64,000 nucleotides of DNA, from positions 15,712 to 79,711 of IMG/VR virus record IMGVR_UViG_3300047476_001238. One strand, given 5' to 3'. This document shows positions 47,322 to 64,000 of this stretch, one piece after another. Below the pieces are notes generated by a model. That model did not search any database, was not told the origin of the DNA, and was given only the letters and a program-made list of their open reading frames with translations. The position numbers and the translations under genes were made by a program. The stretch is from a virus. Lineage: Duplodnaviria; Heunggongvirae; Uroviricota; Caudoviricetes. How positions within the stretch are numbered: the stretch's first letter is position 1; each line of letters opens with the position of its first letter.

Positions 47322-47348
47322 AAAAAAAGGCACAAAAGTGCCTTTTTT
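47322..47348. terminator. bidirectional rho-independent terminator (GGCAC-AAAA-GTGCC)
   Basis: Perfect hairpin flanked by an A-run and a T-run, between pstS and the OMP gene. Confidence 0.6.
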
Positions 47349-47368
47349 GATTAAAATATTTAATCTAA

Positions 47369-47929: not shown

Positions 47930-47957
47930 TGTTTTCTCCTTAAAAAAAATTGTTTAA

Positions 47958-48797
47958 TTAATCAGCCCAATTGGACTGCATTTTAGTGACGTACTGATTT
48001 ACTTCATCTAAATCTTTTTGCTTGATATCCCAATTGGCAACTGTGTCTGATGTTTCTAAAAATTTGTTAAAGTCTCTGCTTTGAACAGCGTATCTAAGAT
48101 TTTTTAGAACATTGGGATCAGTTGCATTAGTGTATACCACATAGGTAATTTGGAAATTAGGAATAGGTAAATTTAGTTTTTTACCAATAAAGTTTTTGGC
48201 TGCGGGATCTGTGCTGTAGATACAATCAAGATTGGCGCCTTGTTTTTTTGCCATTCCTGATCCTATCCAACCCAGGTCAACATCGCCAGACCGTACAGCA
48301 GTCACAATTTCTGCGCTACCAGGATATGGAACCAATTTGGTACTTGATCCGGCGCTGACAAAATTGTTTTCATGCTTGGGTACGGCGTACATACTGGCCA
48401 TGCCTAGTGTAGTTTTGTTATTACCAAAATCCACTGTTGACCCTGGTTTACGGCAGATGTTCACATAAGTATAACCAATGAACAGTATCTGCTGAGGCTT
48501 AATGCCTGCCAATGAGCAATTGATTTTTTTATTGCGAGCAGCAAAATCAATTGAACTGTTGTAAACCATAACAGCATTTTTATTGTTGTTAAAAGTGGCG
48601 ATAGCATCTTCGCAATCTCGTGCTTGATACCAGTCTCCATTAACAGCACTTCTATAGGCCTGACCCACCACTGTGGCAGGACTGGCTTTGTTGCTTGGAT
48701 TGATCACAAGAGGTTCCACTAAGTTAGCTGAACCAGGTTCAGCTACAGCAGATCCCATTGTCAAAATCAAAGCAGTTATAAAACTAACAAATTTCAT
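47958..48797 (-). CDS. TctC/Bug-family-like periplasmic substrate-binding protein
   Basis: Signal peptide MKFVSFITALILTMGSAVA. LVPYPGSAEIVTAVRSGDVDLGW resembles the TctC VPYKGG...GG.VD motif. Confidence 0.55.
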   Translation of the reverse strand: MKFVSFITALILTMGSAVAEPGSANLVEPLVINPSNKASPATVVGQAYRSAVNGDWYQARDCEDAIATFNNNKNAVMVYNSSIDFAARNKKINCSLAGIKPQQILFIGYTYVNICRKPGSTVDFGNNKTTLGMASMYAVPKHENNFVSAGSSTKLVPYPGSAEIVTAVRSGDVDLGWIGSGMAKKQGANLDCIYSTDPAAKNFIGKKLNLPIPNFQITYVVYTNATDPNVLKNLRYAVQSRDFNKFLETSDTVANWDIKQKDLDEVNQYVTKMQSNWAD

Positions 48798-48808
48798 TTT
48801 TTTTCTCC

Positions 48809-50101
48809 TTAGAAATAAAGTGTGTAAGCTTGTAAATATAACCAAACAAGTTTGTCGCCCAAAATTATTGTAAACAACAATGGTAATGAGCTAACGTTCT
48901 TGAATTTTAAAATTAAACCTATTGTAGTAAAAAATGCAAGTAAAGTCAAGTATGATACTACCGTAGTTTCGGCTGTGTACAAGTCAATGCCTATCAGTGC
49001 TGCCACAACTCCAATCATGACAAATTTCATTCGAGAATGTAAACTCACAATCAATCTAGCATAAAAATCTATTAGCCGTGTGCTCAAAAAATAGTAAACA
49101 AACAAACTAACTGTTAACGAAATCGCAGTGATATCTAGCACAGTCAGTGTGCCCATGAAACTATTTTCAAATATAGCACTTGGTAAGAATAAACTTTTTA
49201 AGTCTGCCAGATTTGACATTATCAAAGTGTTTTGATTGATTGGTAATGCAAATGCCAGCAGCGGCAATGCACATGCAATAACCGAACTGTTGTTTGCAGT
49301 TTCAGCAGCAACGATTCGATCATTAGTGCCAATTGTGGTTTTATAGGCCAATACTGATGCAGTAGTTGCACTTGGTCCGGGAACCAGTCCGGCCACTATA
49401 CCAAGTACAGTTGACTTCGCAGTCAGCCATAAATTTTGAGTTCTGCGAGCGATGTAATTCAATTGACTGTCATAGGTTGAACTGTCGTGTTTGGCAAACA
49501 CCTGCGGTATGATCATTACTCCCAGTAGTACCATAAAGAATGTGTACCCTTGAAATAAAGTTTTTAGTTCAAACCACGATGCTGTGATTGCATAATTGTT
49601 CTGTGGACTAATTGCAAATCCTAAACAGATTAACAATAAGGTCCACAGATAGTTTTTGTTTACATACAACAAACTTAATAACGTGATTGTGTATAAAACT
49701 ATCTGAAACTTTATACTGGACAAGAATGGTAAATTATCCAAGTTTACATACTGTAAAGCCACGTAGAGAAACACAGTACTCGCTATACCTGCAATTAAAC
49801 TACCAACAGCAGTTTGATACAACAATGCACGACGTTCATCTAGTGTAAGATAATCTAGATCTTTGAGATATACTAAAGAACTTTCTTCCCCAGGTATCTT
49901 GGTTGTAATAGTGGCCACGCTGCCAAAAAATTGACTGCCAGACACTACTACTAACCAAAACACCAGCAAGTACTCCAACGATAAATCGTTGTGAAAGTAA
50001 TACAGTATGAAAGGGCCTATGTAAACAGGCAATGCTGGAAGCAAGCCTGTTATGATACCCACAAAGATACCTGCCAGAATAATTAAAGTTAATGTAATCA
50101 C
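48809..50101 (-). CDS. tctA: TctA-family (tripartite tricarboxylate transporter large subunit) membrane protein
   Basis: 430 aa polytopic protein with repeated halves and the GLVPGPSATTA signature of TctA/DUF112. Starts on a GTG. Confidence 0.75.
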   Translation of the reverse strand: MITLTLIILAGIFVGIITGLLPALPVYIGPFILYYFHNDLSLEYLLVFWLVVVSGSQFFGSVATITTKIPGEESSLVYLKDLDYLTLDERRALLYQTAVGSLIAGIASTVFLYVALQYVNLDNLPFLSSIKFQIVLYTITLLSLLYVNKNYLWTLLLICLGFAISPQNNYAITASWFELKTLFQGYTFFMVLLGVMIIPQVFAKHDSSTYDSQLNYIARRTQNLWLTAKSTVLGIVAGLVPGPSATTASVLAYKTTIGTNDRIVAAETANNSSVIACALPLLAFALPINQNTLIMSNLADLKSLFLPSAIFENSFMGTLTVLDITAISLTVSLFVYYFLSTRLIDFYARLIVSLHSRMKFVMIGVVAALIGIDLYTAETTVVSYLTLLAFFTTIGLILKFKNVSSLPLLFTIILGDKLVWLYLQAYTLYF

Positions 50102-50269: not shown

Positions 50270-50277
50270 TATTTATA
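50270..50277 (-). promoter_or_regulatory. T4-type late promoter motif TATAAATA, about 170 nt upstream of tctA and overlapping the GT17 stop codon
   Basis: Exact octamer on the coding strand. Confidence 0.4.
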
Positions 50278-51103
50278 CTAGATAAGATCTTGCACTAGGA
50301 AAATTTCCAACAATAATATTGCTACTACCTTGTACATGCTTGGGCAAGTATTCATCTACTGCAACAGGAGCAAAACGATAATTTACATCGGTCTGTATAA
50401 TACCTGCACCACGTGCTATACTGGCTTCTATGTCCAGCTGTTCGAGTATGTCTGGCCGATTGGTTTCTGCATGAGCAAAACTTTGTATTTTGGTTTTTGC
50501 AAAATCTTCGTTGCCAAGATAAGTGAAATGCCACCCGGCATGTTCAACAATTTCCAGCATGGAATCTCGGGCTCCGTATTCAAAATCATTTAATGCGTGT
50601 CGCATGCGTCTAAAATCTTCTGCACTGACCAATAGTTTTTTTCTTAATGCGCCGGACCAGACTGTGTAGCAATCTTGGTTGATCAGCATGTAATTGTATC
50701 GGAAATTGAACAGGGGCATACGGAATCCCCAAATACTTCTTTCACTGGTTCTTAGATAATCCACTGTTTCTGGACGCGGAATTTCGTCTGCATCACCAAT
50801 CATGATAATATCTTCTGGTGCGGCATCGGCTACCGCTTGCACAATAGCATCGCGTTGATACCGTTCTCTTGCCCAAGCATCTGTGTCCACAGGCATATCT
50901 TCTACTACATAATGTATTATTTTGTCTGCCCATTCAGCGAATCGAATCGCATTTTCTTTGTAGTACAATGGTTTTTCTTTGTTCTGGAAAGTTCTTCTGG
51001 CTTCAACCAAAACAAAATGATCCACATGATCATAAAGTTCACGGAGACGTAGTTCTAGTAGCTCGAACTCGTTAAAAAATGTAAAACAGTCGTAGATTTT
51101 CAT
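50273..51103 (-). CDS. glycosyltransferase family 17-like protein
   Basis: N-terminus MKIYDCFTFFNEFELLELRL is typical of bacterial and phage GT17 homologs. DADEIP acidic motif present. Confidence 0.65.
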   Translation of the reverse strand: MKIYDCFTFFNEFELLELRLRELYDHVDHFVLVEARRTFQNKEKPLYYKENAIRFAEWADKIIHYVVEDMPVDTDAWARERYQRDAIVQAVADAAPEDIIMIGDADEIPRPETVDYLRTSERSIWGFRMPLFNFRYNYMLINQDCYTVWSGALRKKLLVSAEDFRRMRHALNDFEYGARDSMLEIVEHAGWHFTYLGNEDFAKTKIQSFAHAETNRPDILEQLDIEASIARGAGIIQTDVNYRFAPVAVDEYLPKHVQGSSNIIVGNFPSARSYLV

Positions 51104-51154
51104 GTCAATACTTAGTATAATAAATACTCTACAAATTGATTTTCAAGGAACTAT

Positions 51155-51796
51155 ATGCACGCCGTTGCTAGTCTACACGATGCCAATTATGCTGATTTGG
51201 CAAAACTAACCGATTCACCAAAACAAGAATACTGCGAACGTCACGGATACAAATTTTTTGTGCTTGATGAAATGAAGTATAGCACAATTACTGGCTTTAA
51301 CAAAATTCATTTTACTCTAGACTTATTCCAACAGCACCCAGAAATTGAATGGCTGTTGTTTAGTGAGTGCGACGCAATGATTACCAATTTAACAATTCGA
51401 ATTGAGGATCGTGTGGATGACAACTATCACTTTATTGTGCCTGTGGATCGACTGAATCTAAACTCAGGCAATTTCCTGGCTCGCAATAGCGAACAAGGTC
51501 GTGCATACTTGCAAATGATTGTAGACAGTGAAGCCGAATACAAAGATGTTGAATGGGCCGAACAACAAGTGATCATCGATACCATTGATCAATACCAAGA
51601 CATTGTCAAAATTGTTCCGCAAAAATACATGAACAGCTACGAACCGGAAATTTACGACTACTGCGACGCCAGCCGAGATATACTAGGCAACAGCGGTGCG
51701 TGGGAACCCGGAGATTGGATTGTTCATTGGCCCGGAACATACAAACCCACACGCATCAGTCGAGCAAATCATCACCTATCACAATTGACCAGATGA
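51155..51796 (+). CDS. putative GT-A glycosyltransferase (GMA12/MNN10-like)
   Basis: DXD-like ECD and a C-terminal HWPG. Confidence is low. Confidence 0.4.
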   Translation: MHAVASLHDANYADLAKLTDSPKQEYCERHGYKFFVLDEMKYSTITGFNKIHFTLDLFQQHPEIEWLLFSECDAMITNLTIRIEDRVDDNYHFIVPVDRLNLNSGNFLARNSEQGRAYLQMIVDSEAEYKDVEWAEQQVIIDTIDQYQDIVKIVPQKYMNSYEPEIYDYCDASRDILGNSGAWEPGDWIVHWPGTYKPTRISRANHHLSQLTR

Positions 51797-52635
51797 AAAT
51801 TTTTATTACTGGCGCTACAGGTTTTGTTGGGCAAAACCTAGTAGATTATTATTCTAAACGCGGTCACGAAGTCTATGCATTTCGTAGAGATGAGCAATTA
51901 CACGAATGCTTGCGTAAATTTCAGCCAGACGCTATAATTAACTCAGCAGCCGAGATATACGATCCCGAACACATGTTTGAACCGAACATTGTAATGGTTC
52001 AGACTGTGTTAGAATATGTTCGCGAATGTGATCAATACTGCCGTTTGGTTCAAATTGGTTCCAGCAGTGAATATGGGCCAACTGATCACTCAACTGCTGA
52101 AACAGATTTATTGAAGCCAGTTGATTACTATCAAGCTACCAAAGGTGCTGCAACATTGATGTGCCAAGGCTGGGCAAGATTTTTCAATTTGCCCGTTTGG
52201 ATTGTGAGACCGTACAGTGTATATGGCCCAGGTGAACGACCGCATAGATTGTTTCCTAGGTTGTATCGTGCGTTCAATTACAACGAGCCAATGACTCTGT
52301 ATCAAGGACATCATGATTTCATTTATATAAATGATTTTGTTCGTGGAATTGATTTGGTATTGCAAGAATGGGACCTGGCTCCGGGAGAAATTGTGAACTT
52401 CGGTAGCGGATCACAAACAAGTAATTTTGATCTATTGGACTTATGGATACGTATTACAGAAAATACCAATGCACCGGTGGCCAAGGTGGCCGAAATGCGA
52501 AAGGCGTTTGAAAACAACGTATGGGTCTGTGACGTTGCCAAATCTTTCAAATTGGGATTTGACTGCGAGTACACATTAGAAACAGGAATAAGAGATTTTT
52601 TATTAAAGGCAAAATATGATAGAACGATTAATTAA
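51793..52635 (+). CDS. NAD-dependent sugar epimerase/reductase (SDR, RmlD/GalE-like)
   Basis: Start at the ATG overlapping the upstream stop (ATGA). Rossmann motif ITGATGFVGQNL and YYQATK (YxxxK). Confidence 0.78.
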   Translation: MKIFITGATGFVGQNLVDYYSKRGHEVYAFRRDEQLHECLRKFQPDAIINSAAEIYDPEHMFEPNIVMVQTVLEYVRECDQYCRLVQIGSSSEYGPTDHSTAETDLLKPVDYYQATKGAATLMCQGWARFFNLPVWIVRPYSVYGPGERPHRLFPRLYRAFNYNEPMTLYQGHHDFIYINDFVRGIDLVLQEWDLAPGEIVNFGSGSQTSNFDLLDLWIRITENTNAPVAKVAEMRKAFENNVWVCDVAKSFKLGFDCEYTLETGIRDFLLKAKYDRTIN

Positions 52636-53323
52636 AACAAGTCAACAAAAGGACTTTGTTTATCAAAGCGAACATCCCGATGTCACGGCATGGTTCAATA
52701 ATCCAGAAAATTACACTGATGTAATTTTGAAACAAATAAACGAGGACGGCATGTACGATCCTATTTTTGCTGGACGCACTGATATGACTGTGCTTGATCT
52801 TGGAGCCAATTGCGGACTGTTCAGTTTATATGCAGCAGACAGTTGCAAGAAACTGATCTCTGTAGAACCAACACCAAAAACATTTGGTGTACTACAAGAA
52901 ATTGTTCGAGATCACGCAAATATTACTCCATTACAACTGGCTATTGGTCCACACAACGAAATGATTTCGTTCTATATTAACGAAAACTCAACCACCAATA
53001 GCATGCTCAATCGTAATGGCACCGAAACTCAAGTACAATGTATGACCCTAGAAACTTTGTTTCACATGCAGGGACTTGATCATGTAGACTTTATCAAATG
53101 TGACATTGAAGGTTCAGAAATGCAAGCATTAACTGATGCTACTCTTGGTCCAATTGCAGACCGGGTTAATTTTTGGTTTGTGGAAGTTCACCAAACTGAT
53201 GTTAAAGAAAATGCCTGGCCTGGCAACCTGGGTGCAAATAGGCAGCAACTTGCTGAACTGTTTCAACGTCACGGGTATCAAACTGAAATGGTCATTCACG
53301 ATCAATTGCTTGCATGGAAATGA
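52616..53323 (+). CDS. FkbM-family SAM methyltransferase
   Basis: VLDLGANCGLFSLYAA and FIKCDIEGSE FkbM signature blocks. Confidence 0.75.
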   Translation: MIERLIKTSQQKDFVYQSEHPDVTAWFNNPENYTDVILKQINEDGMYDPIFAGRTDMTVLDLGANCGLFSLYAADSCKKLISVEPTPKTFGVLQEIVRDHANITPLQLAIGPHNEMISFYINENSTTNSMLNRNGTETQVQCMTLETLFHMQGLDHVDFIKCDIEGSEMQALTDATLGPIADRVNFWFVEVHQTDVKENAWPGNLGANRQQLAELFQRHGYQTEMVIHDQLLAWK

Positions 53324-53934
53324 ACACACTAGCTCGTAGGGTAATTGATATTACCTACCAAGAACGTCTGAGTCACCTCAGCTCGACACTGAGTGCTTTG
53401 CCTATTATTGAAGAAATTTATGCTCAGAAGAAGGATGATGAAGTATTCATTCTGAGTAATGGTCATGCAGGACTTGCTCTATACGTGGTGCTTGAAAAAT
53501 ACCACGGTGTTGATCCAGTTGCTATGCTTCACAAACATGGGATCCATCCAGGTAGAGATCTAGAGAATCATTTGTACTGCTCTACAGGCAGTCTTGGTTC
53601 TGGATTACCTATCGCAGTTGGACACGCATTGGCAACTCCCAACAAGCAAGTTTACTGCATGATCAGTGACGGCGAAGCAGCCGAAGGTAGTATCTGGGAA
53701 GCATTACGTTTTATACAAGATAATAACATCACTAATCTACATGTGTACGTAAACATCAATGGTATGGGTGCATACGATGAGTTAGATACTCATCAATTGG
53801 CCTATCGGCTAGAAGCATTTTTACCTAGGATCAATTTAAGATTTAGCGATCCACCGCGATGGTCATTTGCAAAAGACCTACTAACACATTATTATGTTCT
53901 TAAAGAGCAAGACTACAAGGAGATTACTCAATGA
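53314..53934 (+). CDS. transketolase-like TPP enzyme, N-terminal (PP-domain) subunit
   Basis: GH...GSLGSGLPIAVGHALA and SDGEAAEGSIWEA (GDG-x-EG) thiamine-diphosphate-binding motifs. Only 206 aa. Confidence 0.8.
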   Translation: MEMNTLARRVIDITYQERLSHLSSTLSALPIIEEIYAQKKDDEVFILSNGHAGLALYVVLEKYHGVDPVAMLHKHGIHPGRDLENHLYCSTGSLGSGLPIAVGHALATPNKQVYCMISDGEAAEGSIWEALRFIQDNNITNLHVYVNINGMGAYDELDTHQLAYRLEAFLPRINLRFSDPPRWSFAKDLLTHYYVLKEQDYKEITQ

Positions 53935-54413
53935 GAAAAGAGTGTGCTAGTCTGTTATTAGAAAGCATGGTCAATACCGACCATATTCGTGTGATCACTG
54001 CTGATCTTGGATTTGGCATTTTGGACCAAATTCGCAATGCTTTTCCAGAACGTTTTTACAATGTTGGTGCAGCCGAACAACTGATGATTGGTGCTGCTGT
54101 AGGAATGGCACAAGAAGGTCTAGTACCTGTGTGTTATTCGATGAGTAGCTTTTTGCTCTATCGTCCTTTTGAATTCTTACGCAATTATGTCAATCACGAA
54201 CAGATACCAGTTAAACTGATTGGCTCTGGTAGAGATCGGGATTATAGCCACGATGGTATTAGCCATTGGGCACACGATGACGAACAGGTGCTTGCTGCTT
54301 TACCAAATATTAAATTATACAAACCTCAATCAATTGCTGAACTAGAGGATATTTGGCCTGTGTTTATTGGTTCCAAAGAACCTGCTTATTTAAATTTGAC
54401 AAGAAAAATATGA
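53931..54413 (+). CDS. transketolase-like TPP enzyme, pyrimidine-binding subunit (short, lacks the C-terminal domain)
   Basis: FNVGAAEQ, a Pyr-domain GxDGxTH-like SHDGISHWAHDD, and only 160 aa. Confidence 0.7.
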   Translation: MRKECASLLLESMVNTDHIRVITADLGFGILDQIRNAFPERFYNVGAAEQLMIGAAVGMAQEGLVPVCYSMSSFLLYRPFEFLRNYVNHEQIPVKLIGSGRDRDYSHDGISHWAHDDEQVLAALPNIKLYKPQSIAELEDIWPVFIGSKEPAYLNLTRKI

Positions 54414-55366
54414 CAACAAAAGTAGTTTACGTCACCGGCTGTCTGGGCTTTATTGGATATCACGTGACTAAAAAATGTCTAGCACAAGGATACTATGTTA
54501 TTGGTGTAGACAAGAAAACCTATGCAGCAAATGTACAGTTCCTTCCAGAACTGTTAGAATATAAAGATCAGTTCAAGTTCATTGATTCCGATATCAACGA
54601 TCTTGACATGCTGTACGACTGTGATTATATTATCAATACCGCAGCCGAGACACATGTTGATAACAGTATTGTGAGCAGTGATGTTTTCTTACGTAGCAAT
54701 GTAAATGGTGTACATCATTTGCTCAACTTGATCAAAGAGCGTCATCGTTTCAAAATGCCCACGCTACTGCATTTTAGTACAGACGAAGTCTACGGCGACA
54801 TCGAAGAAGGCGCACATGTTGAAACAGATCTACTAAAACCTAGTAATCCTTATTCGGCCACAAAAGCAGCAGCGGATCAATTGATTATTGCATGGGCACG
54901 TACATTCCGGGTGCCTTATGTTATTGTTAGACCTACAAACAATTACGGCATTGGTCAATACACAGAAAAGTTTATTCCTAAAACTATTAAGAGTTTGCAG
55001 TTAGGAAGAAAAATTCCGCTGCATGATGCCGGTATGCCACGCCGTACTTGGCTTCATGTGAGTGATACTGCATCGGCTGTTATAAAAATCATTGAGTCTG
55101 GTGTTCAAAACGAAATTTTCAACATAAGCGGAAATCACGAAGAACAAAATATTGTGATTGCCATGCAAATTATTGATATGTTTTGTCCCAACGAAGTAGA
55201 CGATTACGATTTGTATTTGGACTTGTCTATTAAACGACCCGGACAAGATGTTCGATACAGTATTGACGATCAAAAATTAAAGGCTCTTGGATGGAAACCA
55301 AAAGCTATTTTTGAAGTAGAACTGGCTAAGATTGTTCAGTACTATTCCCAGACGTTTGTGTGGTAG
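54410..55366 (+). CDS. NDP-sugar 4,6-dehydratase/epimerase (SDR)
   Basis: ATGA-coupled start. VYVTGCLGFIGYHV, STDEVYG, YSATKAAAD. Confidence 0.82.
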   Translation: MTTKVVYVTGCLGFIGYHVTKKCLAQGYYVIGVDKKTYAANVQFLPELLEYKDQFKFIDSDINDLDMLYDCDYIINTAAETHVDNSIVSSDVFLRSNVNGVHHLLNLIKERHRFKMPTLLHFSTDEVYGDIEEGAHVETDLLKPSNPYSATKAAADQLIIAWARTFRVPYVIVRPTNNYGIGQYTEKFIPKTIKSLQLGRKIPLHDAGMPRRTWLHVSDTASAVIKIIESGVQNEIFNISGNHEEQNIVIAMQIIDMFCPNEVDDYDLYLDLSIKRPGQDVRYSIDDQKLKALGWKPKAIFEVELAKIVQYYSQTFVW

Positions 55367-55832: not shown

Positions 55833-56160
55833 TGCTCTGTTTAATAATAGTTGGATTTTCAGGCGCAGAACCTCTGACGTTTCTCAATACCCAACTGCTG
55901 TAATTTATAAAAGCTGCGAAAGGATAAGAAACTATTGCCAGTGATGCAGTTAAACAAACAAATAAAAATAAAAACAAAATTGTAAACACAGTGAACACAA
56001 TTTCAAGCATGAAATTCCAAAAACCATTTACACCAATATCAAATTCTGGAGTCAGGCTCCGACCTGAATTGTGGGATCTGATGTGTGTTCGTAATGATTC
56101 TATCTGTTCGATACCACGCATTACCAAAATTTCAAGCAAACCACGATACAGCTCAGTCAT
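55813..56160 (-). CDS. hypothetical membrane protein (115 aa)
   Basis: Central hydrophobic helices. Confidence 0.4.
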   Translation of the reverse strand: MTELYRGLLEILVMRGIEQIESLRTHIRSHNSGRSLTPEFDIGVNGFWNFMLEIVFTVFTILFLFLFVCLTASLAIVSYPFAAFINYSSWVLRNVRGSAPENPTIIKQSNEQEKK

Positions 56161-56428
56161 AAATTTTACTCCATTGTTTTAGTTTCAGTTTTTTGTTTTG
56201 TTTGGCGTCATCTAATCTTTTTTGATCTAGCACACCTTGTTCCAACAATATATCAATCATTGCAAGAACATCACCAATTTCAATTTCAAGCATATGATTG
56301 TGTTCGATTCCGGTTTTATAATGAACGGAATCTAATCCGAAGCGACGACATTTGCTAACTTCGACAATCACTTCAGCGCACTCTTCTTGAAGAATATCTA
56401 GGGCTTCTTGTGTTTTATCATTCATCAA
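56153..56428 (-). CDS. MazG-like nucleotide pyrophosphohydrolase (small)
   Basis: EECAEVIVE and EIGDVLAMIDIL resemble the MazG EExxE...E/D motifs. Confidence 0.55.
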   Translation of the reverse strand: MMNDKTQEALDILQEECAEVIVEVSKCRRFGLDSVHYKTGIEHNHMLEIEIGDVLAMIDILLEQGVLDQKRLDDAKQNKKLKLKQWSKIYD

Positions 56429-56675
56429 CTAGATCCAACTCTTCTACAATAGGAGCAACTGACCAATCGGTATTATCTCTAATATCTTTAATCATTTCGT
56501 CACAAGCCTGTTGTGCCTGATCTTTGTTGACGTAAGCTTTTTCGAAAATACGATTTCCGTCGGCAAACTCTGCCATGGCAATATAAATTTTTTTCATGTT
56601 ATAATTATAAACGATTTGAAAATTATTGTCAATGAACTTTGGCATCAGTGCAGCTTTTACACAAACTGTCTGCAC
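56418..56675 (-). CDS. hypothetical protein (85 aa)
   Basis: Coupled ORF. Confidence 0.35.
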   Translation of the reverse strand: MQTVCVKAALMPKFIDNNFQIVYNYNMKKIYIAMAEFADGNRIFEKAYVNKDQAQQACDEMIKDIRDNTDWSVAPIVEELDLVDE

Positions 56676-57477
56676 TGTAGCAAGGTTTCATATTTTCTCT
56701 GATAAGATTTACCATAGGAGATCCGGTATACAAATCATCGTAAGAATCGCGTACCAAGTTTCCTATCACATGTTTTAAATCGTAATCCATACAGCACAAA
56801 ACTACGTCTCCGTTTGGTAATAATACATGCTGATCGTAATTTGCTGTTTTGCTGCAACTGACCGGGCGTTCATGGCGAGTAATAAAATTTACTGGTTGCT
56901 CTTTGACTTGTTCTTTGTTAAGACTTCCTGCTCGGTCATGACCAAACCAATTGTAAAGCTGTATTCCCAAATGGCTGAGATCTTTGTGTACTTTACCATG
57001 ATTGCTCATGGTCATTGCTTCAAGTTTAATATTGGCTTCTCGTACTGCGGTGGTCACCATATGGAATACTGCTTCCCATTCGGTGCTGTATTTCCACCCT
57101 CGCATGTTTCCGTACTCATCTGGAAAATGTACACTCAGCACTTCAATTTGTGCTCTGTACCGGTAAAGTAATGGTATCACTCGCTCGGCAGTTTCAATGT
57201 CCCAATTATAAAAAGTAGTGTAGATAGCCACATTGTGTCCAGAAATCAATGCATGCTCTAACATGTCTGTTGCAGCAGGATTGATCCAGGCTTCGGCCAT
57301 GCCCGAAAAATCAATTCGAGTATTTTTTGGCACCTTTGATAGTGCTGTTTTGAATGTGTCCAGACTCATGTACTTGACATCATTGCCATACATTTCTCTG
57401 AGATTGTCTTGAGGACAAAAATTGCACATCAGTGAACAACCAATCATGGTTGTTATTTCCATTGTAGGTCTTTGCAT
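56629..57477 (-). CDS. radical SAM enzyme with a SPASM/twitch-like Cys-rich C-terminus
   Basis: CSLMCNFC (Cx3Cx2C) at residue 14 and a C-terminal VLCCMDYD...CYSADSLCKSC cluster. Confidence 0.8.
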   Translation of the reverse strand: MQRPTMEITTMIGCSLMCNFCPQDNLREMYGNDVKYMSLDTFKTALSKVPKNTRIDFSGMAEAWINPAATDMLEHALISGHNVAIYTTFYNWDIETAERVIPLLYRYRAQIEVLSVHFPDEYGNMRGWKYSTEWEAVFHMVTTAVREANIKLEAMTMSNHGKVHKDLSHLGIQLYNWFGHDRAGSLNKEQVKEQPVNFITRHERPVSCSKTANYDQHVLLPNGDVVLCCMDYDLKHVIGNLVRDSYDDLYTGSPMVNLIRENMKPCYSADSLCKSCTDAKVH

Positions 57478-57481
57478 GTTT

Positions 57482-58942
57482 TTACTTATCGCGTTTTTGA
57501 CGTGGAGTTGAATCTTTATCTCGTGGTTCGGCTTGACGACCTTTTGGTCTAATTTGAACTCGCGTTTGTTCCGGATCTGGAACTTCTAATTCTTTAAACT
57601 TTCGATCTTGTACCTTGGTTATTTCTTCAAGCAAGGAACCTTTTTCAATGTAATTTCTTACATAAGGTCCTGACTTTTTATTTTCTACTTTGCAACGAAT
57701 TGAGATCAATTCTCGTTTGGGATTCTCAACATCGTGAATACTGATTTCTGGTCGTGTCTTGCCTGTATAACTAGCGGTTAGATCTATTGTACGTAATTTG
57801 TATTCTAAATTTTTAAATCGTAAAATCTTGAATCCGCCTTTGTCAAAATCAACCAATTCCACATTTGGATCACCCAGTGTGGCGAAATGTGTCACTGCAT
57901 GGGCCACTTGATCCACAAAGCGGGCTTCTTCGGTATCATCATTACCGGCAAGTCGTCTTTGTAGTTCTTCGGTGATCTGACGATACATAAACTCTACTGC
58001 TTTGATTGGATCTTTTTTGTATTGTTTTTCAAATTTGTCAACATACGGAGCAACATCAATACCAAAGTATCCAAATAGTTTGGTCATTGACTGTGTGTCA
58101 CTACCGCCTACTTGCCCAAATTGTGCAACGCCGCCGACCTTCAAACTAGCATTAAGTTTTAAGGTACGCATAGCACCGTTTTGATCTCTGATGCCTACCC
58201 ATACATCAGACTTCTTTTCAGTTTCGCTAGCTGCACCATCAGCAACAATATTGATCTCATCTGCTTTACCGTTAAGGTAGAAGTACTTGCTGTAGCGTTC
58301 GGCCATTGCACTATTAACATAAGCCGCTGCACTGTTGAGTTCGTTAACAAGAAGCTTTCGCTTCATGGGATTCATTAGATCTTGATACGGTCCTGTTTTT
58401 AATCTTAGAACAAAACTGATAGTGTCAGCTACTTCACTGTCGGCATCGTTAACAGTGACGCTGTAAGTATCGTCACCTTGTGACTGTAAACTATCAAGTA
58501 CATTGGTAATGTCTGCTGAACTAACAGTGCCCACTTCCTCGCTGGGTTGGCGTTTTGTAAATTTAGCGAACATGGCTGCACCAAGAATACCCTCACTGAC
58601 TTCACCCCTATTGCTGATAGCTGCTTCTTTGCTGTGATTTAAAGCACCTTGTATCGCACTGGTTGTACCTTGTACATAAAAATATATGTTATCTTCGGTT
58701 CTAAATTCATAAACATCGTTGCCTTTTCCCATTACTACCACAGTTTCGCCACGTTGGGTAAGTGCCTGATCTCCTAAGCTTTTGTTAGTAAGTTCAATTG
58801 GTCCAACAATTTCAAGCCCTTGTTGTACAAGCAAGCCCGACAACATTTGCCCAGACTGACTATTACTGACAATAAATTTTTGCCCTGGGCCGTACTTGCT
58901 TAGGGTCACTTCGTTAAGAATAATGTTTATAAGATCGCGCAT
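57482..58942 (-). CDS. hypothetical protein (486 aa) with a basic C-terminal tail
   Basis: Large ORF with no motif. C-terminal KGRQAEPRDKDSTPRQKRDK. Confidence 0.5.
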   Translation of the reverse strand: MRDLINIILNEVTLSKYGPGQKFIVSNSQSGQMLSGLLVQQGLEIVGPIELTNKSLGDQALTQRGETVVVMGKGNDVYEFRTEDNIYFYVQGTTSAIQGALNHSKEAAISNRGEVSEGILGAAMFAKFTKRQPSEEVGTVSSADITNVLDSLQSQGDDTYSVTVNDADSEVADTISFVLRLKTGPYQDLMNPMKRKLLVNELNSAAAYVNSAMAERYSKYFYLNGKADEINIVADGAASETEKKSDVWVGIRDQNGAMRTLKLNASLKVGGVAQFGQVGGSDTQSMTKLFGYFGIDVAPYVDKFEKQYKKDPIKAVEFMYRQITEELQRRLAGNDDTEEARFVDQVAHAVTHFATLGDPNVELVDFDKGGFKILRFKNLEYKLRTIDLTASYTGKTRPEISIHDVENPKRELISIRCKVENKKSGPYVRNYIEKGSLLEEITKVQDRKFKELEVPDPEQTRVQIRPKGRQAEPRDKDSTPRQKRDK

Positions 58943-59022
58943 AATAACATATTTACCGGTTTTAAATATTCTGTTAATTCATGTTGCACTGCAATAAATA
59001 TACACAACAACTAAAGGAAACT

Positions 59023-59193
59023 ATGACCATCGACTTTGAAAGTATCAAAGAACGTCTAAGAGAGATGTTCCCGAACCAATATAAAAGCGACATCGAACAA
59101 TATATTGAAAGCAAAAATCCAAAGAATGCTGCTGATGTAGAACATTATATGAAGCAGTGGACTTATAGTAGTCAAAAATATCAAGGATTATGA
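59023..59193 (+). CDS. small hypothetical protein (56 aa)
   Basis: AAGGAA RBS 5 nt upstream of the ATG at 59023. A longer ORF begins at 58981. Confidence 0.35.
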   Translation: MTIDFESIKERLREMFPNQYKSDIEQYIESKNPKNAADVEHYMKQWTYSSQKYQGL

Positions 59194-59243
59194 TGCGCGG
59201 ATTTATTCAAGCCTTAATCGAAGCAAGACAACGTCAAGCAGAT

Positions 59244-60032
59244 TTATATCTGCGCTGCTTGACTGCCGGAATCTAATCGTTCAATATCTTCTTCGACACA
59301 TTGCTCGCCGTATTGAATTTCAACAATTGTACAAGGTCGCGTAAACGGATTAGTCAGTTGATGCCAGGTGTTTTTTGGTACACGCCATTCATCGTACTTT
59401 CCTAAGATTTTAGGCGGATTTTGCATATCTCCGGGCAAGGCCATATTGATCATACAGGTGCCCTCTGTCACCATCCAGTACTCATTGCGATGTTGATGGC
59501 GCTGCATACTGAGTGTTTGCCCGGGCATTACTTGTAATGTTTTTACTTTGGCACCGGGTATTTCATTTAGTACTGTATAACTGCCCCAAGCACGTTGAAC
59601 TTCAACCGAAGTCCAACGCTTTAAAATATCGCTGCTGCTGTTTAGTTTGTCATCACCGCCTACACCAAACACAAATTCAACATCGCTAAAAATCATTTCA
59701 GGAATGTTATCTTGAGTTCTATCCCCGCCATTGGCAAAAATGATTTTTCCTTTGGGGAACATCTCTTTGACTCGTCTTATAGCATCACAAGCAGTTCCGT
59801 CTGTGTCGTCAAACTCAATTACACGATCGACCATGTGTAAATTGTCTAGCACTGTCATGCGTTCGTGCCAGGTCATAAATGAACGCCCTTTTTTACGTGC
59901 AAGCCAAGCATCTGAGTTTAGCCCAACCACGAGCCAATCGCCCAAGTGGTCAGCATGGTTGAGGTAGGATATGTGTCCACTGTGTACTGGATCAAATCCG
60001 CCAGTGCATATTACAATTCGTTCAGCGTTCAT
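59244..60032 (-). CDS. bifunctional-looking sugar-phosphate nucleotidyltransferase (HIGH-motif cytidylyl/adenylyltransferase fold) fused to a C-terminal cupin domain
   Basis: N-terminal CTGGFDPVHSGH (HxGH). C-terminal QRHQHRNEYWMVTEG cupin motif. Confidence 0.65.
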   Translation of the reverse strand: MNAERIVICTGGFDPVHSGHISYLNHADHLGDWLVVGLNSDAWLARKKGRSFMTWHERMTVLDNLHMVDRVIEFDDTDGTACDAIRRVKEMFPKGKIIFANGGDRTQDNIPEMIFSDVEFVFGVGGDDKLNSSSDILKRWTSVEVQRAWGSYTVLNEIPGAKVKTLQVMPGQTLSMQRHQHRNEYWMVTEGTCMINMALPGDMQNPPKILGKYDEWRVPKNTWHQLTNPFTRPCTIVEIQYGEQCVEEDIERLDSGSQAAQI

Positions 60033-60790
60033 TCTTTGGGTAAATGGAAATCTTTGTCTAACCAGGTTGTAATTATTTCATCTTGCTTTACATAACCGTA
60101 CTTGTTTAAGCTGTTCATAACACTGTCATTTAACAAGTTTAAATCAGCTAAATCATACCACGATGTGGTTTTTGGGTCCATGGGTTCTATGTCTGTTTTG
60201 TATACCGCAGCAGAAAGCCATGGATCATTTTCTTCTTTTAGGAAATAAGCATCTCTACAATCAAATCCATTTACGGCCAACATGTACATCAAGTTAATCA
60301 AGTTGTGATTATAAAAACACCCGTTATAACTGTGTGTTTGAAGTCTGTTGTAGGAGTAGTGAATGGCCTGTGGGAAAATCATCAACAGCATGCCATTGAC
60401 ATTTAACTGCTTGTTCCATGTTTTCAGCGTCAACAAAGGATTGGTAATATACTGAAAAGTATTATGACACCAAATAAAATCTATGGATCTGCTGATAGGA
60501 ACTTCGTCACCATCAATATCCTTGTTGACTAGATAAACATTCTCTAGTTTTTTTAGATCAGGATCTAGATATTTAAAATCTCTGTCAACTGCGTATGTTA
60601 GATAATTTCGCGGCTCTGGCGGATCATCTCGCGTTTCCAAGGTAGCCCACCAACGTGTGTCTAGCCCAGATCCACATCCAAAGTCAGCCACTGATTCTAA
60701 ACTGTCAAGAAAGCTATCGTAGCCATACAGTAAATCTAAAGTCTTTTTACTGTGTTCATGACTTTCATATGCGTTTTTAAACGGAACCAT
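60029..60790 (-). CDS. class I SAM-dependent methyltransferase
   Basis: VADFGCGSGLDT motif I, with acidic post-I and motif II spacing. Confidence 0.65.
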   Translation of the reverse strand: MVPFKNAYESHEHSKKTLDLLYGYDSFLDSLESVADFGCGSGLDTRWWATLETRDDPPEPRNYLTYAVDRDFKYLDPDLKKLENVYLVNKDIDGDEVPISRSIDFIWCHNTFQYITNPLLTLKTWNKQLNVNGMLLMIFPQAIHYSYNRLQTHSYNGCFYNHNLINLMYMLAVNGFDCRDAYFLKEENDPWLSAAVYKTDIEPMDPKTTSWYDLADLNLLNDSVMNSLNKYGYVKQDEIITTWLDKDFHLPKE

Positions 60791-61031
60791 TTTTTAATAC
60801 CTCTATAACTATTTTTTCTTTTAAGGGTTTTAATCTAGACTCCAGCTGATTGCATGCTTCGGCCAATTCTAATTCTGATCCCCAATTCAATGCATGTATC
60901 AGATGAGTTGCCCATCTACCACACACATCTTTTTCGATTTGAATATCTACTGCGTTGTATTTTGGCTTGGCACTAGAGCACAGAGCCCACTCGTATAATA
61001 TGTTCTTTGCATGTTCTTTATAGTCCATCAA
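60777..61031 (-). CDS. hypothetical protein (84 aa)
   Basis: Coupled ORF. Confidence 0.35.
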   Translation of the reverse strand: MMDYKEHAKNILYEWALCSSAKPKYNAVDIQIEKDVCGRWATHLIHALNWGSELELAEACNQLESRLKPLKEKIVIEVLKNGSV

Positions 61032-61480
61032 AGTGTGATATCTTCCATTCCTGCTGTTCTTAAACGAACAACATGGCCTAACATAAAGTTTTTACTTTCT
61101 AGACCTTTCATGACTCCGAGCCATCGATTTCTAAGAAAAGCAACTTCATTAATAATAGTTTCATAATCAATAACTTCGTCTTCACCGTCCACATATTTCT
61201 CGGCATCCCGGGATGATAGCGAACGAGCGTAGGATTCAAGATATTTCTGAAAGTGTTTGCGTCGTATCTTACGAAGTTGTATATTAAGATAATTAAGTAC
61301 AGCTTCGATTTCCTGAAGTTGGTTGAACCTGTGTTCCGTAATACCTGGTAGGCCCGCGGTGGACTTCTCCAGGTTTCCCTTAATAGCTGTATCATATTTT
61401 GCTTGTTGGAGTTCACCTTCGTAATAATTTATGAAGTCAGGTATATTACCAAGATCTGCAACTATTCGATTATACCACAT
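61028..61480 (-). CDS. hypothetical protein (150 aa)
   Basis: Coupled ORF. Confidence 0.4.
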   Translation of the reverse strand: MWYNRIVADLGNIPDFINYYEGELQQAKYDTAIKGNLEKSTAGLPGITEHRFNQLQEIEAVLNYLNIQLRKIRRKHFQKYLESYARSLSSRDAEKYVDGEDEVIDYETIINEVAFLRNRWLGVMKGLESKNFMLGHVVRLRTAGMEDITL

Positions 61481-62747
61481 ATTTTTCTAACCATGGAAAC
61501 AAGACTCGCCAATTTGTATTACGCCGTCTATCTTTTTCATCAAGGAACGTAAACAATTTTACTAGTTCTTCATTGTTTTGTACACTACATTGGCATTCAG
61601 ACATTATTCCTTGCATGTATTTTACTACAGTTTTTTCTTCTTCGGAGTCTGTTTTCATTAGGCTTAAAATTTTAGCGAACGACTCTTGAAATTCGCTGCC
61701 TCCTAATATTTTTGGGTGCATATAAGTTGGCCCTGTTTGTGCCGATGGTGTTGTAAAATACTGTCCAATTTTTCTCTTTTTACTTTGTTCATTTAAGTAT
61801 TCCAACAACTCTGGCATGGTTTTGATAGTTAATACTGTAATAACTTGATTGATATTTAATTTGATCCAAGCTTGATCAATTAGATATTCAAAATTCTTTT
61901 TCCATTGTTCTAAATCTAGACCGCTGCGAACGTATTCCTGCTGAGGACCAAAACAATCTATGCTGCATGTGATGTCTAGTCTTTTTATTTTTTTAGTTGC
62001 CAGCATGTTTTGAAACTGTGCAATAAACTTTTTTAACATCTCATGAGGAACCATTAAATTTGTCACGATGTTAATTTCACAATTGGAATTTTTTTGTTGT
62101 GATAAAAAATCAAGCAGTATCACAAATTCTCGTTGAAAGAATGGTTCTCCACCAAGTACATTTAATCTTTCTAGACTAGAATAGTTTTTATCTAACCATT
62201 CGAGTAATAAAGGAAACAATTCTGCAGAATTATCTTGTGCAATTGGTTTTAGTGTTATTCCGTTTTTATCAAAATTGCCAAATTTGATGTGTTCTTGATT
62301 TATAACTGAACTGTTAGATGGGCTGCAATATAGACAGCCCAGGTTGCAAACATTGTTTAGATATACTTCAAGAATTCTAGGACTTACTATAACCGCAGTG
62401 GGATCATTCTCTAGTTCTACAGGCACTTGATCCGGAATTGCAAGATGTTGCATCCTGTCACTGAATCCGCCAACTTTTTCTATTTCTTGACAATGACTGC
62501 AATTGTGTTCCGGCCATTCACCAGCAAGCATGTGTTGTCTATCTTTTATCACATGCTTGTTGTTGTGAAAATTAAAAAAATTTTCTTTATTTAATGGATG
62601 AAAAGTGGTCCGATGGCAACTGGACGATACCCCATTATGGAGGTACAGAGTTGACCAGGACCACTTTAATTTACAGGCAGTTTCTGTGTTTATAGGAAAA
62701 AATTTTTTTTCCTTATTCATCATCGTAGTCGTCGGGTTCCTCATCAA
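61470..62747 (-). CDS. radical SAM enzyme with a SPASM/twitch-like domain (paralog 2 of 17869-19032)
   Basis: CNLGCLYC (Cx3Cx2C) and LGGEP. The N-terminal Cys/Trp-rich extension (CKLKWSW...SCHRTTF) parallels the other paralog. Confidence 0.8.
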   Translation of the reverse strand: MMRNPTTTMMNKEKKFFPINTETACKLKWSWSTLYLHNGVSSSCHRTTFHPLNKENFFNFHNNKHVIKDRQHMLAGEWPEHNCSHCQEIEKVGGFSDRMQHLAIPDQVPVELENDPTAVIVSPRILEVYLNNVCNLGCLYCSPSNSSVINQEHIKFGNFDKNGITLKPIAQDNSAELFPLLLEWLDKNYSSLERLNVLGGEPFFQREFVILLDFLSQQKNSNCEINIVTNLMVPHEMLKKFIAQFQNMLATKKIKRLDITCSIDCFGPQQEYVRSGLDLEQWKKNFEYLIDQAWIKLNINQVITVLTIKTMPELLEYLNEQSKKRKIGQYFTTPSAQTGPTYMHPKILGGSEFQESFAKILSLMKTDSEEEKTVVKYMQGIMSECQCSVQNNEELVKLFTFLDEKDRRRNTNWRVLFPWLEKYVV

Positions 62748-62934
62748 CCACGTATTCTTTTAATGCTCTGGCAAGTGCAGCATCTGTGGCTCCAAACACT
62801 TTGAGTTCTTCATCGGACAACATATCAACCATAACACTCATTAAGTTGTCTGCACACTCTTGGCGATCTTTTGTTGGGACATAAGATTTCATAATTGTGT
62901 ACAACTCAACTAACACTTCTACATCAATGCTCAT
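62713..62934 (-). CDS. small acidic protein (73 aa)
   Basis: ORF with an Asp/Glu-rich tail. Confidence 0.35.
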   Translation of the reverse strand: MSIDVEVLVELYTIMKSYVPTKDRQECADNLMSVMVDMLSDEELKVFGATDAALARALKEYVVDEEPDDYDDE

Positions 62935-63998
62935 TCTACAGTTTCCTCTTCTGATTGAACAGCAGCAGTATCTTTATGCGGATTCTTTGCAAAGTCTTCC
63001 ATGACCTTGTCCAAGCTGCCGTCATCATTGCGCTCCCACGCCTTACGGAATTGCTTGATAACGGTACCGTCTGCTAGCGTGTATTTAAGACTGTTGCCTT
63101 CTTTCTGCAATAAACCTTTGCCTTCAAACATGTCTACTAGCCCTGAGTACGGATTCATACCAGATTCATAAGGAATCTTGACTTGTACACTTTCAAAAGG
63201 CTTGGCATAGCGTGTTTTCATGATTTTACATGCGGCACGAATACCTTTAACTTCCGAAATCTTGTTGCCATCTTCATCTTCTTTGAGCTTGAGCTTACGC
63301 ATAGCAACAACAATTGAACTTGCGTAAATGAAGCCTTGTCCGCCCGAGATCTTGTCATCAGGGTCAAACATGTCTTGGCTAGCATAGGTATGATTTGTGG
63401 CAACCAGACCGATGTTCAAGCTACCAAACATGTTTACACAATTACGTACCAGAGCTGTCAGTGCCTTGGGCTTACGACCCATGTCACCTTTCAAGTCACC
63501 GGCTTCAAATTGATTAACATCTGTGGGAGTTAATAACATACCCAAGCTATCTAATACGATTAACACTTTAGGACGCTCAGTCTCTGGTAGTGTTTTGTAC
63601 TCTTTAACAAACTCTGTGATCATTTTAGCAACGTCATCGATCATTGCCATGTTGAGTTTGAGAAGCTTGTTTTCAGAAGTATCGACGCCGAGTGCGTGAA
63701 GCCAGGCTTCGTCGAGTGCGTTTTCAGTATCGATAAGAATAACATATATACCTTGTTCTTGTGCGTTCTTAACCAGATTTCCTGAGCAGATAAAGCTTTT
63801 GCCTGCACCAGACTCTCCAGCAAATACAGTAACCTTACCCATTGGAATACCCTTATTAAAGTCCCCGCTAATAAGATAGTTGAGAGCGTAATTGTTTGTG
63901 GAGATCCAGTCTGTTGGGTCGTTAAATCCGACACTGATACCGTCAATACTTTTTGTAATACTTTTGCGAAACTTGCTTACGTCAAATGGTTTAGCCAT
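62931..63998 (-). CDS. uvsX: UvsX (RecA-like) recombinase
   Basis: Walker A FAGESGAGKSF. ATNHTYASQDMF and NPYSGLVDMF correspond to the T4 UvsX INHTYETQEMF and DPYSGLLDMA blocks. Confidence 0.85.
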   Translation of the reverse strand: MAKPFDVSKFRKSITKSIDGISVGFNDPTDWISTNNYALNYLISGDFNKGIPMGKVTVFAGESGAGKSFICSGNLVKNAQEQGIYVILIDTENALDEAWLHALGVDTSENKLLKLNMAMIDDVAKMITEFVKEYKTLPETERPKVLIVLDSLGMLLTPTDVNQFEAGDLKGDMGRKPKALTALVRNCVNMFGSLNIGLVATNHTYASQDMFDPDDKISGGQGFIYASSIVVAMRKLKLKEDEDGNKISEVKGIRAACKIMKTRYAKPFESVQVKIPYESGMNPYSGLVDMFEGKGLLQKEGNSLKYTLADGTVIKQFRKAWERNDDGSLDKVMEDFAKNPHKDTAAVQSEEETVE

Positions 63999-64000
63999 GA

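Follow-up and report, generated by a model that had tools for sequence, protein, structure and literature searches.

Mannose-phosphate isomerase (MPI) genes carried by viruses are recognised auxiliary metabolic genes (PMC9602691). In those sections of Iyer et al. (2021, PMC7824862) that deal with jumbo-phage gene clusters, epimerases/dehydratases of the short-chain dehydrogenase/reductase (SDR) type, cupin isomerases, PfkB kinases, HIGH-superfamily transferases and glycosyltransferases are listed together, and the clusters are read as serving capsular or O-antigen modification and the remodelling of host surface glycans. The present analysis concerns a stretch of 64,000 nucleotides (positions 15,712 to 79,711 of IMG/VR record IMGVR_UViG_3300047476_001238), referred to below as the window, in which an HxGH nucleotidyltransferase and a cupin of the phosphomannose isomerase (PMI) type are joined in the product of a single open reading frame (ORF), hereafter the fusion (Table 1). 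The source of the window is an uncultured T4-like jumbo phage, described as giant and aquatic, and the fusion is not a singleton, being a member of a large unnamed family. Judging from sequence, it appears on balance to be a bifunctional enzyme of nucleotide-sugar precursor synthesis, a convergent analogue of ManC/AlgA.

Domain composition of the fusion

A sequence-only reading of the window had proposed that an HxGH nucleotidyltransferase with the fold of HldC is fused here to a C-terminal cupin. The observation is real and was correctly read at the domain level, as confirmed by Pfam, NCBIfam and AlphaFold2 (AF2)/Foldseek. Residues 8-116 match PF01467 (CTP_transf_like, E 5.7e-13), the N-terminal domain matches phrog_7878 with 95 bits, and the AF2 model consists of two domains with a mean predicted local distance difference test score (pLDDT) of 89.8. 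The proposed comparison of the N-terminal half with HldC and TagD was carried out in NCBIfam, where TIGR02199 (rfaE_dom_II/HldC) is the top family (78.5 bits, E 4e-22, which falls below the equivalog cut-off of 181.5) and TagD the second (47.9 bits); FAD synthetase gave a sole match at E 0.005, and the pantoate-ligase family gave none. FAD synthetase, PPAT and NMNAT were accordingly rejected as the best match of the domain (E 5e-3 to 3e-9, against 4e-22 for HldC). By BLASTP, domain II of Escherichia coli HldE shares 45% identity with the fusion over 75 amino acids (aa) (E 3e-17), and in Foldseek the N-terminal half resembles HldC of Burkholderia pseudomallei (5xf2, 30-34% identity). The sequence matches of the transferase domain in the PDB include ethanolamine-phosphate cytidylyltransferase (ECT, 3elb), which has the best E-value, HldC (5x9q, E 3.1e-10), TagD (1coz) and the cytidylyltransferase domain of Fom1.

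By sequence and fold, the C-terminal half is clearly a type II PMI domain. Residues 143-254 match PF01050 (MannoseP_isomer) with 80.4 bits against a gathering cut-off of 23.6 (E 1.5e-22), covering positions 10-115 of the 116 of the profile, and PF07883 (Cupin_2) overlaps this match. The C-terminal domain of E. coli CpsB/ManC is 35% identical over 110 aa (BLASTP, E 2e-18), the similarity being confined to the C-terminal part; likewise, TIGR01479 (bifunctional GMP-PMI) aligns through its positions 356-463 only and, with 68.7 bits, stays below its cut-off of 372.95. From residue 144 onwards the AF2 model consists of beta structure throughout, mostly with pLDDT >88, and its Foldseek matches are cupins. 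Among the matches listed, the highest TM-scores of the cupin half belong to the Thermococcus PMIs 7zvy and 7zvm (TMt 0.84-0.87, root mean square deviation 2.0 Å), while a PDB sequence search with the cupin half returned a weak match to BH2720 alone (E 6e-4).

The zinc ligands of type I PMIs are Gln, His, Glu and His, and enzymes of the RmlC type are not known to have a metal site. Inspection of the cupin residues, as the sequence-only reading had advised, showed that those for metal binding and catalysis are retained (S175, Q177, H179, R182, E184 and H224), and H224 takes the place of the HCLEN histidine of E. coli ManC in the pairwise alignment. The S-x-Q-x-H motif is common to type I and type II PMIs, in which Ser serves the phosphate, Gln catalysis and His the zinc, the Arg being a type II residue (PMC9602691). 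No match of the fusion to PF00908, the RmlC family, was obtained at E<=0.01. Given this and the conserved metal-type site, an RmlC-like cupin was rejected, and the RmlC-like step suggested earlier gives way to a domain of the aldose-ketose isomerase type.

Family size and conservation

A word-indexed search with the fusion yielded 8000 scored matches. The 120 that were listed span 59-93% identity, and nearly all of them hold both domains, the few without PF01467 being shorter (202-230 aa). In length and in the order of the two domains, more than 110 clusters at 63-89% identity agree with the fusion. An exhaustive search of 50%-identity representatives found 242 at E<1e-30, mostly 245-275 aa long and matching end to end; about 100 of the 150 best representatives listed share the length and the architecture. 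Since so many relatives do, the fusion is not an artefact of ORF calling. Longer members of the family retain the same two domains, and no informative third domain was found in them. In one close relative of the transferase domain (P0256) the partner is a GNAT acetyltransferase instead of a cupin, which would fit a pattern of an upstream step joined to activation, as in GlmU. In current annotation the family goes by 'cytidyltransferase-like' or 'cupin domain-containing'; a third label, 'heptose kinase/adenylyltransferase', is wrong.

In an alignment of 65 diverse fusions (35-52% identity) the invariant residues are G11, H20, K47, W149, G150, H179, R182, E184, H224, E238, G242 and D249. Conservation of at least 90% extends, on the transferase side, to the rest of GGFDPxHxGH (G12, F13, D14, P15, H17, G19), to RKKG, NGGDR and E112, and further to K129, S132-S134, K164, S175, Q177, W186 and N228. 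The second His of the classical cupin HxH, H181, is not conserved.

All 82 viral fusion sequences form one clade in a neighbour-joining tree. Sister to it are the fusions from a Legionellales (L046) and a Neomarinimicrobiota (L048) metagenome-assembled genome (MAG); their flanks contain many small unclustered ORFs, and the contigs may be phage DNA that was binned into MAGs.

Genomic context in phages

The window represents a replication, recombination and nucleotide-metabolism region. UvsX (62931-63998) is 63-69% identical to UvsX of Phosso, CBB, GAP32 and Atu_ph07, phages of 350-490 kb, and UvsY, UvsW, a DnaB-like helicase, a primase and both the large and the small subunit of ribonucleotide reductase are encoded as well. 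Several sugar loci are interspersed among the replication genes. The stretch from uvsX to the fusion is densely coding, with all genes on a single strand, and a promoter/terminator scan of 58800-63000 gave counts at or below those expected from shuffled sequence. A 338-kb JGI contig has a gene order nearly identical to that of the window, and a megablast search of 56000-64000 against a collection of deposited phages revealed no close DNA relative.

At least 590 relatives of the fusion were found in IMG/VR, and neighbourhoods were taken from the best 80 loci and three others; the genomes of the phage relatives measure 338-357 kb (e.g. Ga0194130_10000013). Context was counted in 82 loci by de novo ORF calling and BLAST clustering, with denominators of 79 upstream and 76 downstream, a neighbour being counted within four genes. 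On this basis uvsY precedes the fusion in 43 of 79 loci. Downstream, 39 of 76 loci have a recognised glycosyltransferase of some kind and 33 of 76 have a GT8 enzyme; an unassigned family of tandem copies follows in 29 of 76. The glycosyltransferases that neighbour the fusion in phage relatives belong to GT8, GT25 and GT4. A nucleoside diphosphate (NDP)-sugar dehydrogenase lies directly upstream of the fusion in one locus (L091) and a few genes off in another (L090). The slot in this uncultured T4-like jumbo clade is thus typically right after uvsX-uvsY and ahead of variable glycosyltransferase islands.

The tandem family that follows the fusion and GT8 (loci L094-L171) consists of proteins of ∼286 aa without a Pfam or PHROG match, present in 78 copies in the 82 loci and in arrays of up to four. 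Five loci of one phage subgroup (L097, L110, L127, L145 and L148) carry the fusion, then a GT-B glycosyltransferase and then FolE-/QueD-like 7-deazaguanine genes, which were named by eye; a separate HldC-like transferase lies between the GT-B and the FolE-/QueD-like genes.

Genomic context in bacteria

The GTDB species set contains at least 572 relatives of the fusion, the best 80 of which (32-56% identity) were taken. Most of these belong to SAR86 (including the complete genome CP097968.1) and Pelagibacteraceae, and other holders among them are Dadabacteria/Thermodesulfobacteriota, Woeseia, Chloroflexota and the candidate phyla radiation (CPR). For the members from SAR86, SAR11 and other marine bacteria the identity is 35-53%. 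Context was counted in 69 loci with a full-length fusion and flanks of up to 10 kb, in which housekeeping genes were named by reading the sequences. The commonest order in SAR86 is uvrC-pgsA-fusion followed by a variable polysaccharide island. A GMD-like cluster, whose representative passes TIGR01472 (GDP-mannose 4,6-dehydratase; 452 bits against 415), occurs within four genes of the fusion in 16 of the 69 loci, and an NDP-sugar dehydrogenase within the same distance in 13. Neither canonical ManC nor ManB was found in the flanks of these loci. SAR11 loci show the order polA-fusion-MFS, and two other SAR86 orders are pntAB-fusion-gyrA and metK-fusion-ahcY; these arrangements represent housekeeping contexts without glycan genes.

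Proposed function

From the domain identities, the motif conservation, the size of the family and the association with glycan islands, all of which were observed, we infer both activities, the substrates, the nucleotide and the glycan target as follows. In the cupin, Q177, H179, E184 and H224 are the predicted ligands of a divalent metal. The reaction would be the interconversion of a ketose phosphate with an aldose phosphate of manno configuration, most likely fructose-6-P/mannose-6-P or sedoheptulose-7-P/D-glycero-D-manno-heptose-7-P. The HxGH domain would add a nucleoside monophosphate, AMP or CMP by family precedent, to the matching sugar-1-phosphate. The intervening steps (a mutase, or a kinase and a phosphatase) would be performed by other enzymes of the host or the phage, and the product would supply the glycosyltransferase and sugar-modification genes of the phage.

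The bifunctional reading is supported by the window itself, which encodes two proteins of the NDP-hexose 4,6-dehydratase type without any ManC-, GalU-, ManB-, GmhA- or GmhB-like ORF: phmmer searches with E. coli GmhA, GmhB, ManB, the N-terminal part of ManC and a GalU-like query detected none among the window ORFs of at least 50 aa, whatever their frame, at E<=1. Nor was a PF00483-type nucleotidyltransferase that could feed the deoxy-/branched-sugar loci found in the window. In view of these null searches, the fusion and the HldC-like gene of the heptose locus (Table 1) are the only sugar-type nucleotidyltransferases detected in the 64 kb; the two halves of the fusion and the corresponding split genes of the window are distant paralogues (42% identity over 73 aa and 24% over 82 aa).

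The sequence-only reading had envisaged the activation of a sugar-1-phosphate coupled to isomerisation within a third glycan-tailoring unit. The general idea stands, while the notion of a tailoring unit is better replaced by that of a precursor-supply gene, which fits the conserved position after uvsY and the location at island borders. The recurrent placement of the fusion at the head of glycosyltransferase-rich islands, in phages as well as in SAR86, points to the supply of a common activated precursor.

Several considerations weigh against such a function. To our knowledge, the HxGH transferases that act on small molecules use ATP or CTP, and GMD requires GDP-mannose, so that a mannose pathway would need either an unprecedented GTP-using HxGH enzyme or split roles for the two domains. 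GT8 enzymes, which follow the phage fusions more often than any other neighbour, usually use UDP-sugars. The loci examined contain no mutase, anomeric kinase or phosphatase in company with the fusion, and its direct downstream neighbours in the window, a 486-aa protein and a SPASM radical-SAM protein, are not glycan genes. The names given by NCBI to bacterial members are generic ('adenylyltransferase/cytidyltransferase family protein', 'cupin domain-containing protein' or 'hypothetical'). Finally, one must bear in mind that a conserved cupin need not be an active PMI, since some PMI domains of the ManC type are poor or inactive in vivo; the ManC-type protein CBU0671 of Coxiella burnetii does not complement manA (PMC3204966).

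Nature of the sugar and alternative explanations

With regard to the sugar, a mannose-type (hexose) substrate is tentatively placed ahead of a heptose, which appears somewhat unlikely, and the remaining probability is shared between the phosphate of a different sugar or of a polyol and a cupin without catalytic function. The hexose is favoured because PMI is the only known activity of the cupin domain family and because hexoses are the substrates of the recurrent neighbours GMD and NDP-sugar 6-dehydrogenase. The same preference follows from the coexistence of the fusion with separate, more canonical HldC-like genes, as seen in the window and six further phage loci, and with canonical GmhA in some SAR86 islands.

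The strongest competing explanation is a route to ADP-heptose that dispenses with GmhA, an isomerase of the SIS fold, in which the cupin would isomerise sedoheptulose-7-P to D-glycero-D-manno-heptose-7-P and the HldC-paralogous domain would adenylylate beta-heptose-1-P, thereby serving or duplicating the locus at 35973-40639. Chemically, what GmhA catalyses is the PMI reaction on a seven-carbon sugar. HldC is the best family of the transferase domain, the identity to domain II of E. coli HldE is 45%, and the window holds HldA-, HldC- and HldD-like genes and GT9 without a homologue of GmhA or GmhB in any frame. However, the HldC-like gene of the heptose locus scores 132.5 bits with TIGR02199, against 78.5 for the fusion, and that locus has a cupin of its own (37727-38086). 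The heptose partners lie ∼20 kb from the fusion in the window, no HldA, WaaC or WaaF was found within 10 kb of it in the 69 bacterial loci, and among these loci three SAR86 fusion islands hold a canonical GmhA and two a GmhB. Together with the separate HldC-like genes of the six phage loci and the hexose-specific neighbours mentioned above, this makes the route unlikely. The case for the GmhA-like step that had been suggested for the fusion is weakened and the step is regarded as less likely, as the heptose locus is provided with its own transferase and cupin and some SAR86 islands with canonical GmhA.

It is less probable still that the two halves do not form a sugar pair at all, and that the transferase activates a compound other than a sugar phosphate (e.g. 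glycerol-3-P, phosphoethanolamine, a phosphonate or FMN) next to a cupin that would act as a structural or oligomerisation module or as an unrelated metalloenzyme. The strong and specific match to PF01050, the maintenance of the PMI motif across a family of 35% identity and the recurrence of glycosyltransferase-rich islands around the fusion in both phages and bacteria argue against this explanation, which draws on the ECT, TagD and Fom1 matches in the PDB, on a score far under the HldC equivalog cut-off and on the housekeeping contexts of SAR11 and some SAR86 members. In addition, neither a phosphoenolpyruvate (PEP) mutase nor genes of teichoic-acid synthesis turned up among the window ORFs that were scanned. 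The phosphonate idea, which arose from a split TPP-dependent enzyme in the window and the Fom1 match, was rejected, as no PEP mutase was present among the ORFs scanned.

The suggestion that the fusion and the downstream glycosyltransferases make donors for the glycosylation of phage DNA (hypermodified bases), and not for a surface glycan or virion glycoprotein, seems very improbable: the gene of the phage clade does lie inside the replication/recombination module, one subgroup does lie near the 7-deazaguanine genes named by eye, and 5-hydroxymethylcytosine in DNA does become heptosylated by a phage cluster that encodes a HAD/APH enzyme together with a cytidylyltransferase and a GT-B (bioRxiv 10.1101/2023.12.21.572611), but the window yielded no identifiable dCMP hydroxymethylase, DNA glycosyltransferase or pair of 5-methylcytosine methyltransferase and TET, its GT9, GT17 and GT34 as well as the GT8, GT25 and GT4 of the relatives are typical of lipopolysaccharide and polysaccharide synthesis, and the bacterial members reside in O-antigen-like islands.

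The adjacent methyltransferase

The ORF directly upstream of the fusion had been taken for a class I S-adenosylmethionine (SAM) methyltransferase, with which motif I, the Methyltransf_11 match and the fold agree. The protein is divergent; it passes the cut-off of Methyltransf_11 only (26.2 against 21.2 bits), and its motif I reads D36-F-G-C-G-S-G-L-D44, with D36, G38, G40 and G42 invariant. The AF2 model has a pLDDT of 88.3, and its top Foldseek matches are all SAM methyltransferases. These neighbours are generic (TM ∼0.5) and include assorted rRNA, polyketide-synthase and small-molecule methyltransferases; the best PDB sequence match, to trans-aconitate methyltransferase, is weak (E 6.5e-4).

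The stop codon of the methyltransferase gene and the start codon of the fusion overlap in ATGA. The family lies directly upstream of the fusion in 24 of the 79 phage loci, an unrelated methyltransferase family (hhalign probability 18%) occupies the same slot in seven of 79, and the methyltransferase family of the window is absent from all the bacterial loci examined. Translational coupling and the presence of two unrelated methyltransferases in the same slot hint at a link with the product of the fusion. The functional link remains weak, given the inconstant adjacency, the absence from bacterial loci and the lack of a specific structural neighbour, and the methyltransferase, viewed earlier as part of one unit with the fusion, is not a constant partner of it. 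In one locus (L102) the methyltransferase stays by uvsY, and the fusion together with its glycosyltransferases is inverted some genes off.

Just downstream of the fusion, at 57482-58942 on the minus strand, the 486-aa protein belongs to phrog_3560, a family of unknown function. In the subgroup of phages that carry the methyltransferase, the fusion is followed by homologues of 392-458 aa, and a basic C-terminal tail, EPRDKD(S/T)TPRQKRD, is common to them.

Other genes of the window

Three further sugar loci were recognised, namely a near-complete locus of the ADP-heptose type (35973-40639, minus strand) and two deoxy-/branched-sugar loci (40629-43595 and 50273-55366), the components of which are given in Table 1. 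The stand-alone cupin of the heptose locus is a more direct candidate for a GmhA substitute than is the fusion. The 198-aa ORF next to it was considered as a possible GmhB and rejected; it has no Pfam or PHROG match, and its HxD...H pattern, seen by eye, is more oxygenase- or cupin-like than phosphatase-like.

Table 1. Position of the fusion, its motifs and other annotated features in the window
Feature	Coordinates	Strand	Basis or remark
Fusion ORF, 262 aa, HxGH nucleotidyltransferase and type II PMI-type cupin	59244..60032	minus	ORF list, Pfam, NCBIfam, AF2
N-terminal nucleotidyltransferase domain, aa 1-140, Rossmann-like HIGH fold	59613..60032	minus	phrog_7878, TIGR02199, PDB, Foldseek
HxGH motif H17-S-G-H20 within GGFDPVHSGH	59973..59984	minus	translation
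Cupin domain of the C-terminal half (aa 143-254), type II PMI	59271..59606	minus	PF01050, ManC BLASTP, fold
PMI motif S175-M-Q177-R-H179-Q-H-R182-N-E184, putative phosphate/catalytic/metal site	59481..59510	minus	conservation; PMC9602691
H224, second-motif cupin histidine, putative fourth metal ligand	59361..59363	minus	invariant; aligns with His of HCLEN in ManC
ORF of 253 aa, divergent class I SAM methyltransferase, ATGA overlap with the fusion	60029..60790	minus	Methyltransf_11, AF2, Foldseek
HldD-like epimerase	locus 35973-43595	minus	TIGR02197, 207.8 bits
HldC-like transferase	36733-37137	minus	TIGR02199, 132.5 bits
198-aa ORFan	37134-37730	minus	4 homologues in 5.8 billion proteins
Stand-alone cupin	37727-38086	minus	phrog_7851, weakly PF01050
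HldA-like PfkB kinase	locus 35973-40639	minus	
267-aa unknown protein	locus 35973-40639	minus	
GT9 heptosyltransferase	locus 35973-40639	minus	
NDP-hexose (sugar) C-methyltransferase and dTDP-glucose-4,6-dehydratase-like SDR	40629-43595		
GT17, GT34, SDR, FkbM methyltransferase and second 4,6-dehydratase-like SDR	50273-55366		
Split TPP-dependent enzyme (TPP_enzyme_C and Transket_pyr)	within 50273-55366		
Phosphate-selective porin O/P	44804-46210	minus	PF07396, E 6e-51
PstS-like periplasmic binding protein	46220-47335	minus	
Small outer-membrane beta-barrel	47369-47929	minus	
TctA-family transporter	48809-50101	minus	

Five radical-SAM/SPASM proteins, one of them with a B12-binding domain, are scattered among the replication and recombination genes (9332-11056, 17869-19032, 20498-21451, 56629-57477 and 61470-62747). 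One of the five, a radical-SAM protein with an N-terminal twitch domain (NF033640, 232 bits), is encoded between uvsX and uvsY, a position at which relatives have up to two copies. The minus strand of 44804-50101 carries a block of host-like uptake genes. Auxiliary genes distributed over four stretches (25482-28072, 31581-33524, 35462-35938 and 43832-44464) code for a 2OG-Fe(II) oxygenase, a PIG-L deacetylase, a PrmA-like methyltransferase, an SPFH/Band 7 protein, an AAA ATPase, a gamma-glutamyl cyclotransferase-like protein and a protein matching the N-terminal domain of biotin-protein ligase.

Comparison with known systems

No paper characterising the transferase-cupin fusion was found in literature searches. 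Neither does any record in a collection of 50,697 phage records cover 80% or more of the fusion in tblastn, the matches being of half length only. In cultured phages the two halves are separate genes, usually in different genomes or far apart (S-SCSM2R). The cytidylyltransferase-like proteins of cyanophages (S-SSM7 gp186 and P-TIM68 gp149, phrog_7878) are ∼50% identical to the N-terminal 147 aa of the fusion and are likewise encoded near uvsX, and cyanophage MPI cupins (S-SCSM1 ORF118) share ∼30% identity with its cupin. The PMIs of Thermococcus kodakarensis and T. barophilus (7zvy and 7zvm), to which the cupin half is so similar in fold, differ in being single-domain proteins with 18% sequence identity. 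The parts list in the cluster sections of Iyer et al. (2021, PMC7824862) matches the phage context of the fusion; cupin isomerases and HIGH transferases are separate there, and the fusion, the uvsY slot and the bacterial relatives go unmentioned in those sections.

With HldC and domain II of HldE (TIGR02199; 5x9q/5xf2) the fusion shares the HxGH, GGD(Y/R) and C-terminal S/T-rich motifs. It differs in having a cupin as partner in place of the PfkB kinase, in bacterial loci that are devoid of HldA and heptosyltransferases and only exceptionally hold GmhA or GmhB, and in its coexistence with a more canonical HldC-like gene in the same phage.

The closest parallel is offered by ManC/CpsB/AlgA/WbpW/PslB (TIGR01479), which have a homologous PF01050 cupin with the motifs S-x-Q-x-H-x-H-R-x-E-x-W and H-x-L-x-N-P, combine an isomerase and a sugar-1-P nucleotidyltransferase in one polypeptide, and are likewise found at or in polysaccharide clusters beside gmd. 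In contrast, the transferase of the fusion is a Rossmann-type HxGH (HIGH) domain of ∼140 aa, non-homologous to the ∼350-aa PF00483 domain of ManC, which is GT-A-like, and its nucleotide is probably not GTP. It may be, although we consider this doubtful, that the family does the work of ManC, or of GmhA and HldC together, without being homologous to them, both in SAR86 and SAR11, which rank among the most abundant marine bacteria, and throughout a clade of aquatic jumbo phages, yielding a nucleotide sugar new for the HxGH fold (e.g. ADP-, CDP- or GDP-mannose, or ADP-heptose made independently of GmhA) and seeding hypervariable surface-glycan islands. The family edges the variable surface-glycan islands of SAR86, is also present in SAR11, and in a clade of ∼340-kb phages its slot is fixed. 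Recognition between phage and host in the ocean depends primarily on such glycans, and the identity of the product would tell which activated sugar starts the diverse glycans of these organisms. If the predicted activities hold, the union of isomerase and sugar activation known from ManC would have arisen a second time, independently, by a swap to a transferase of a different fold.

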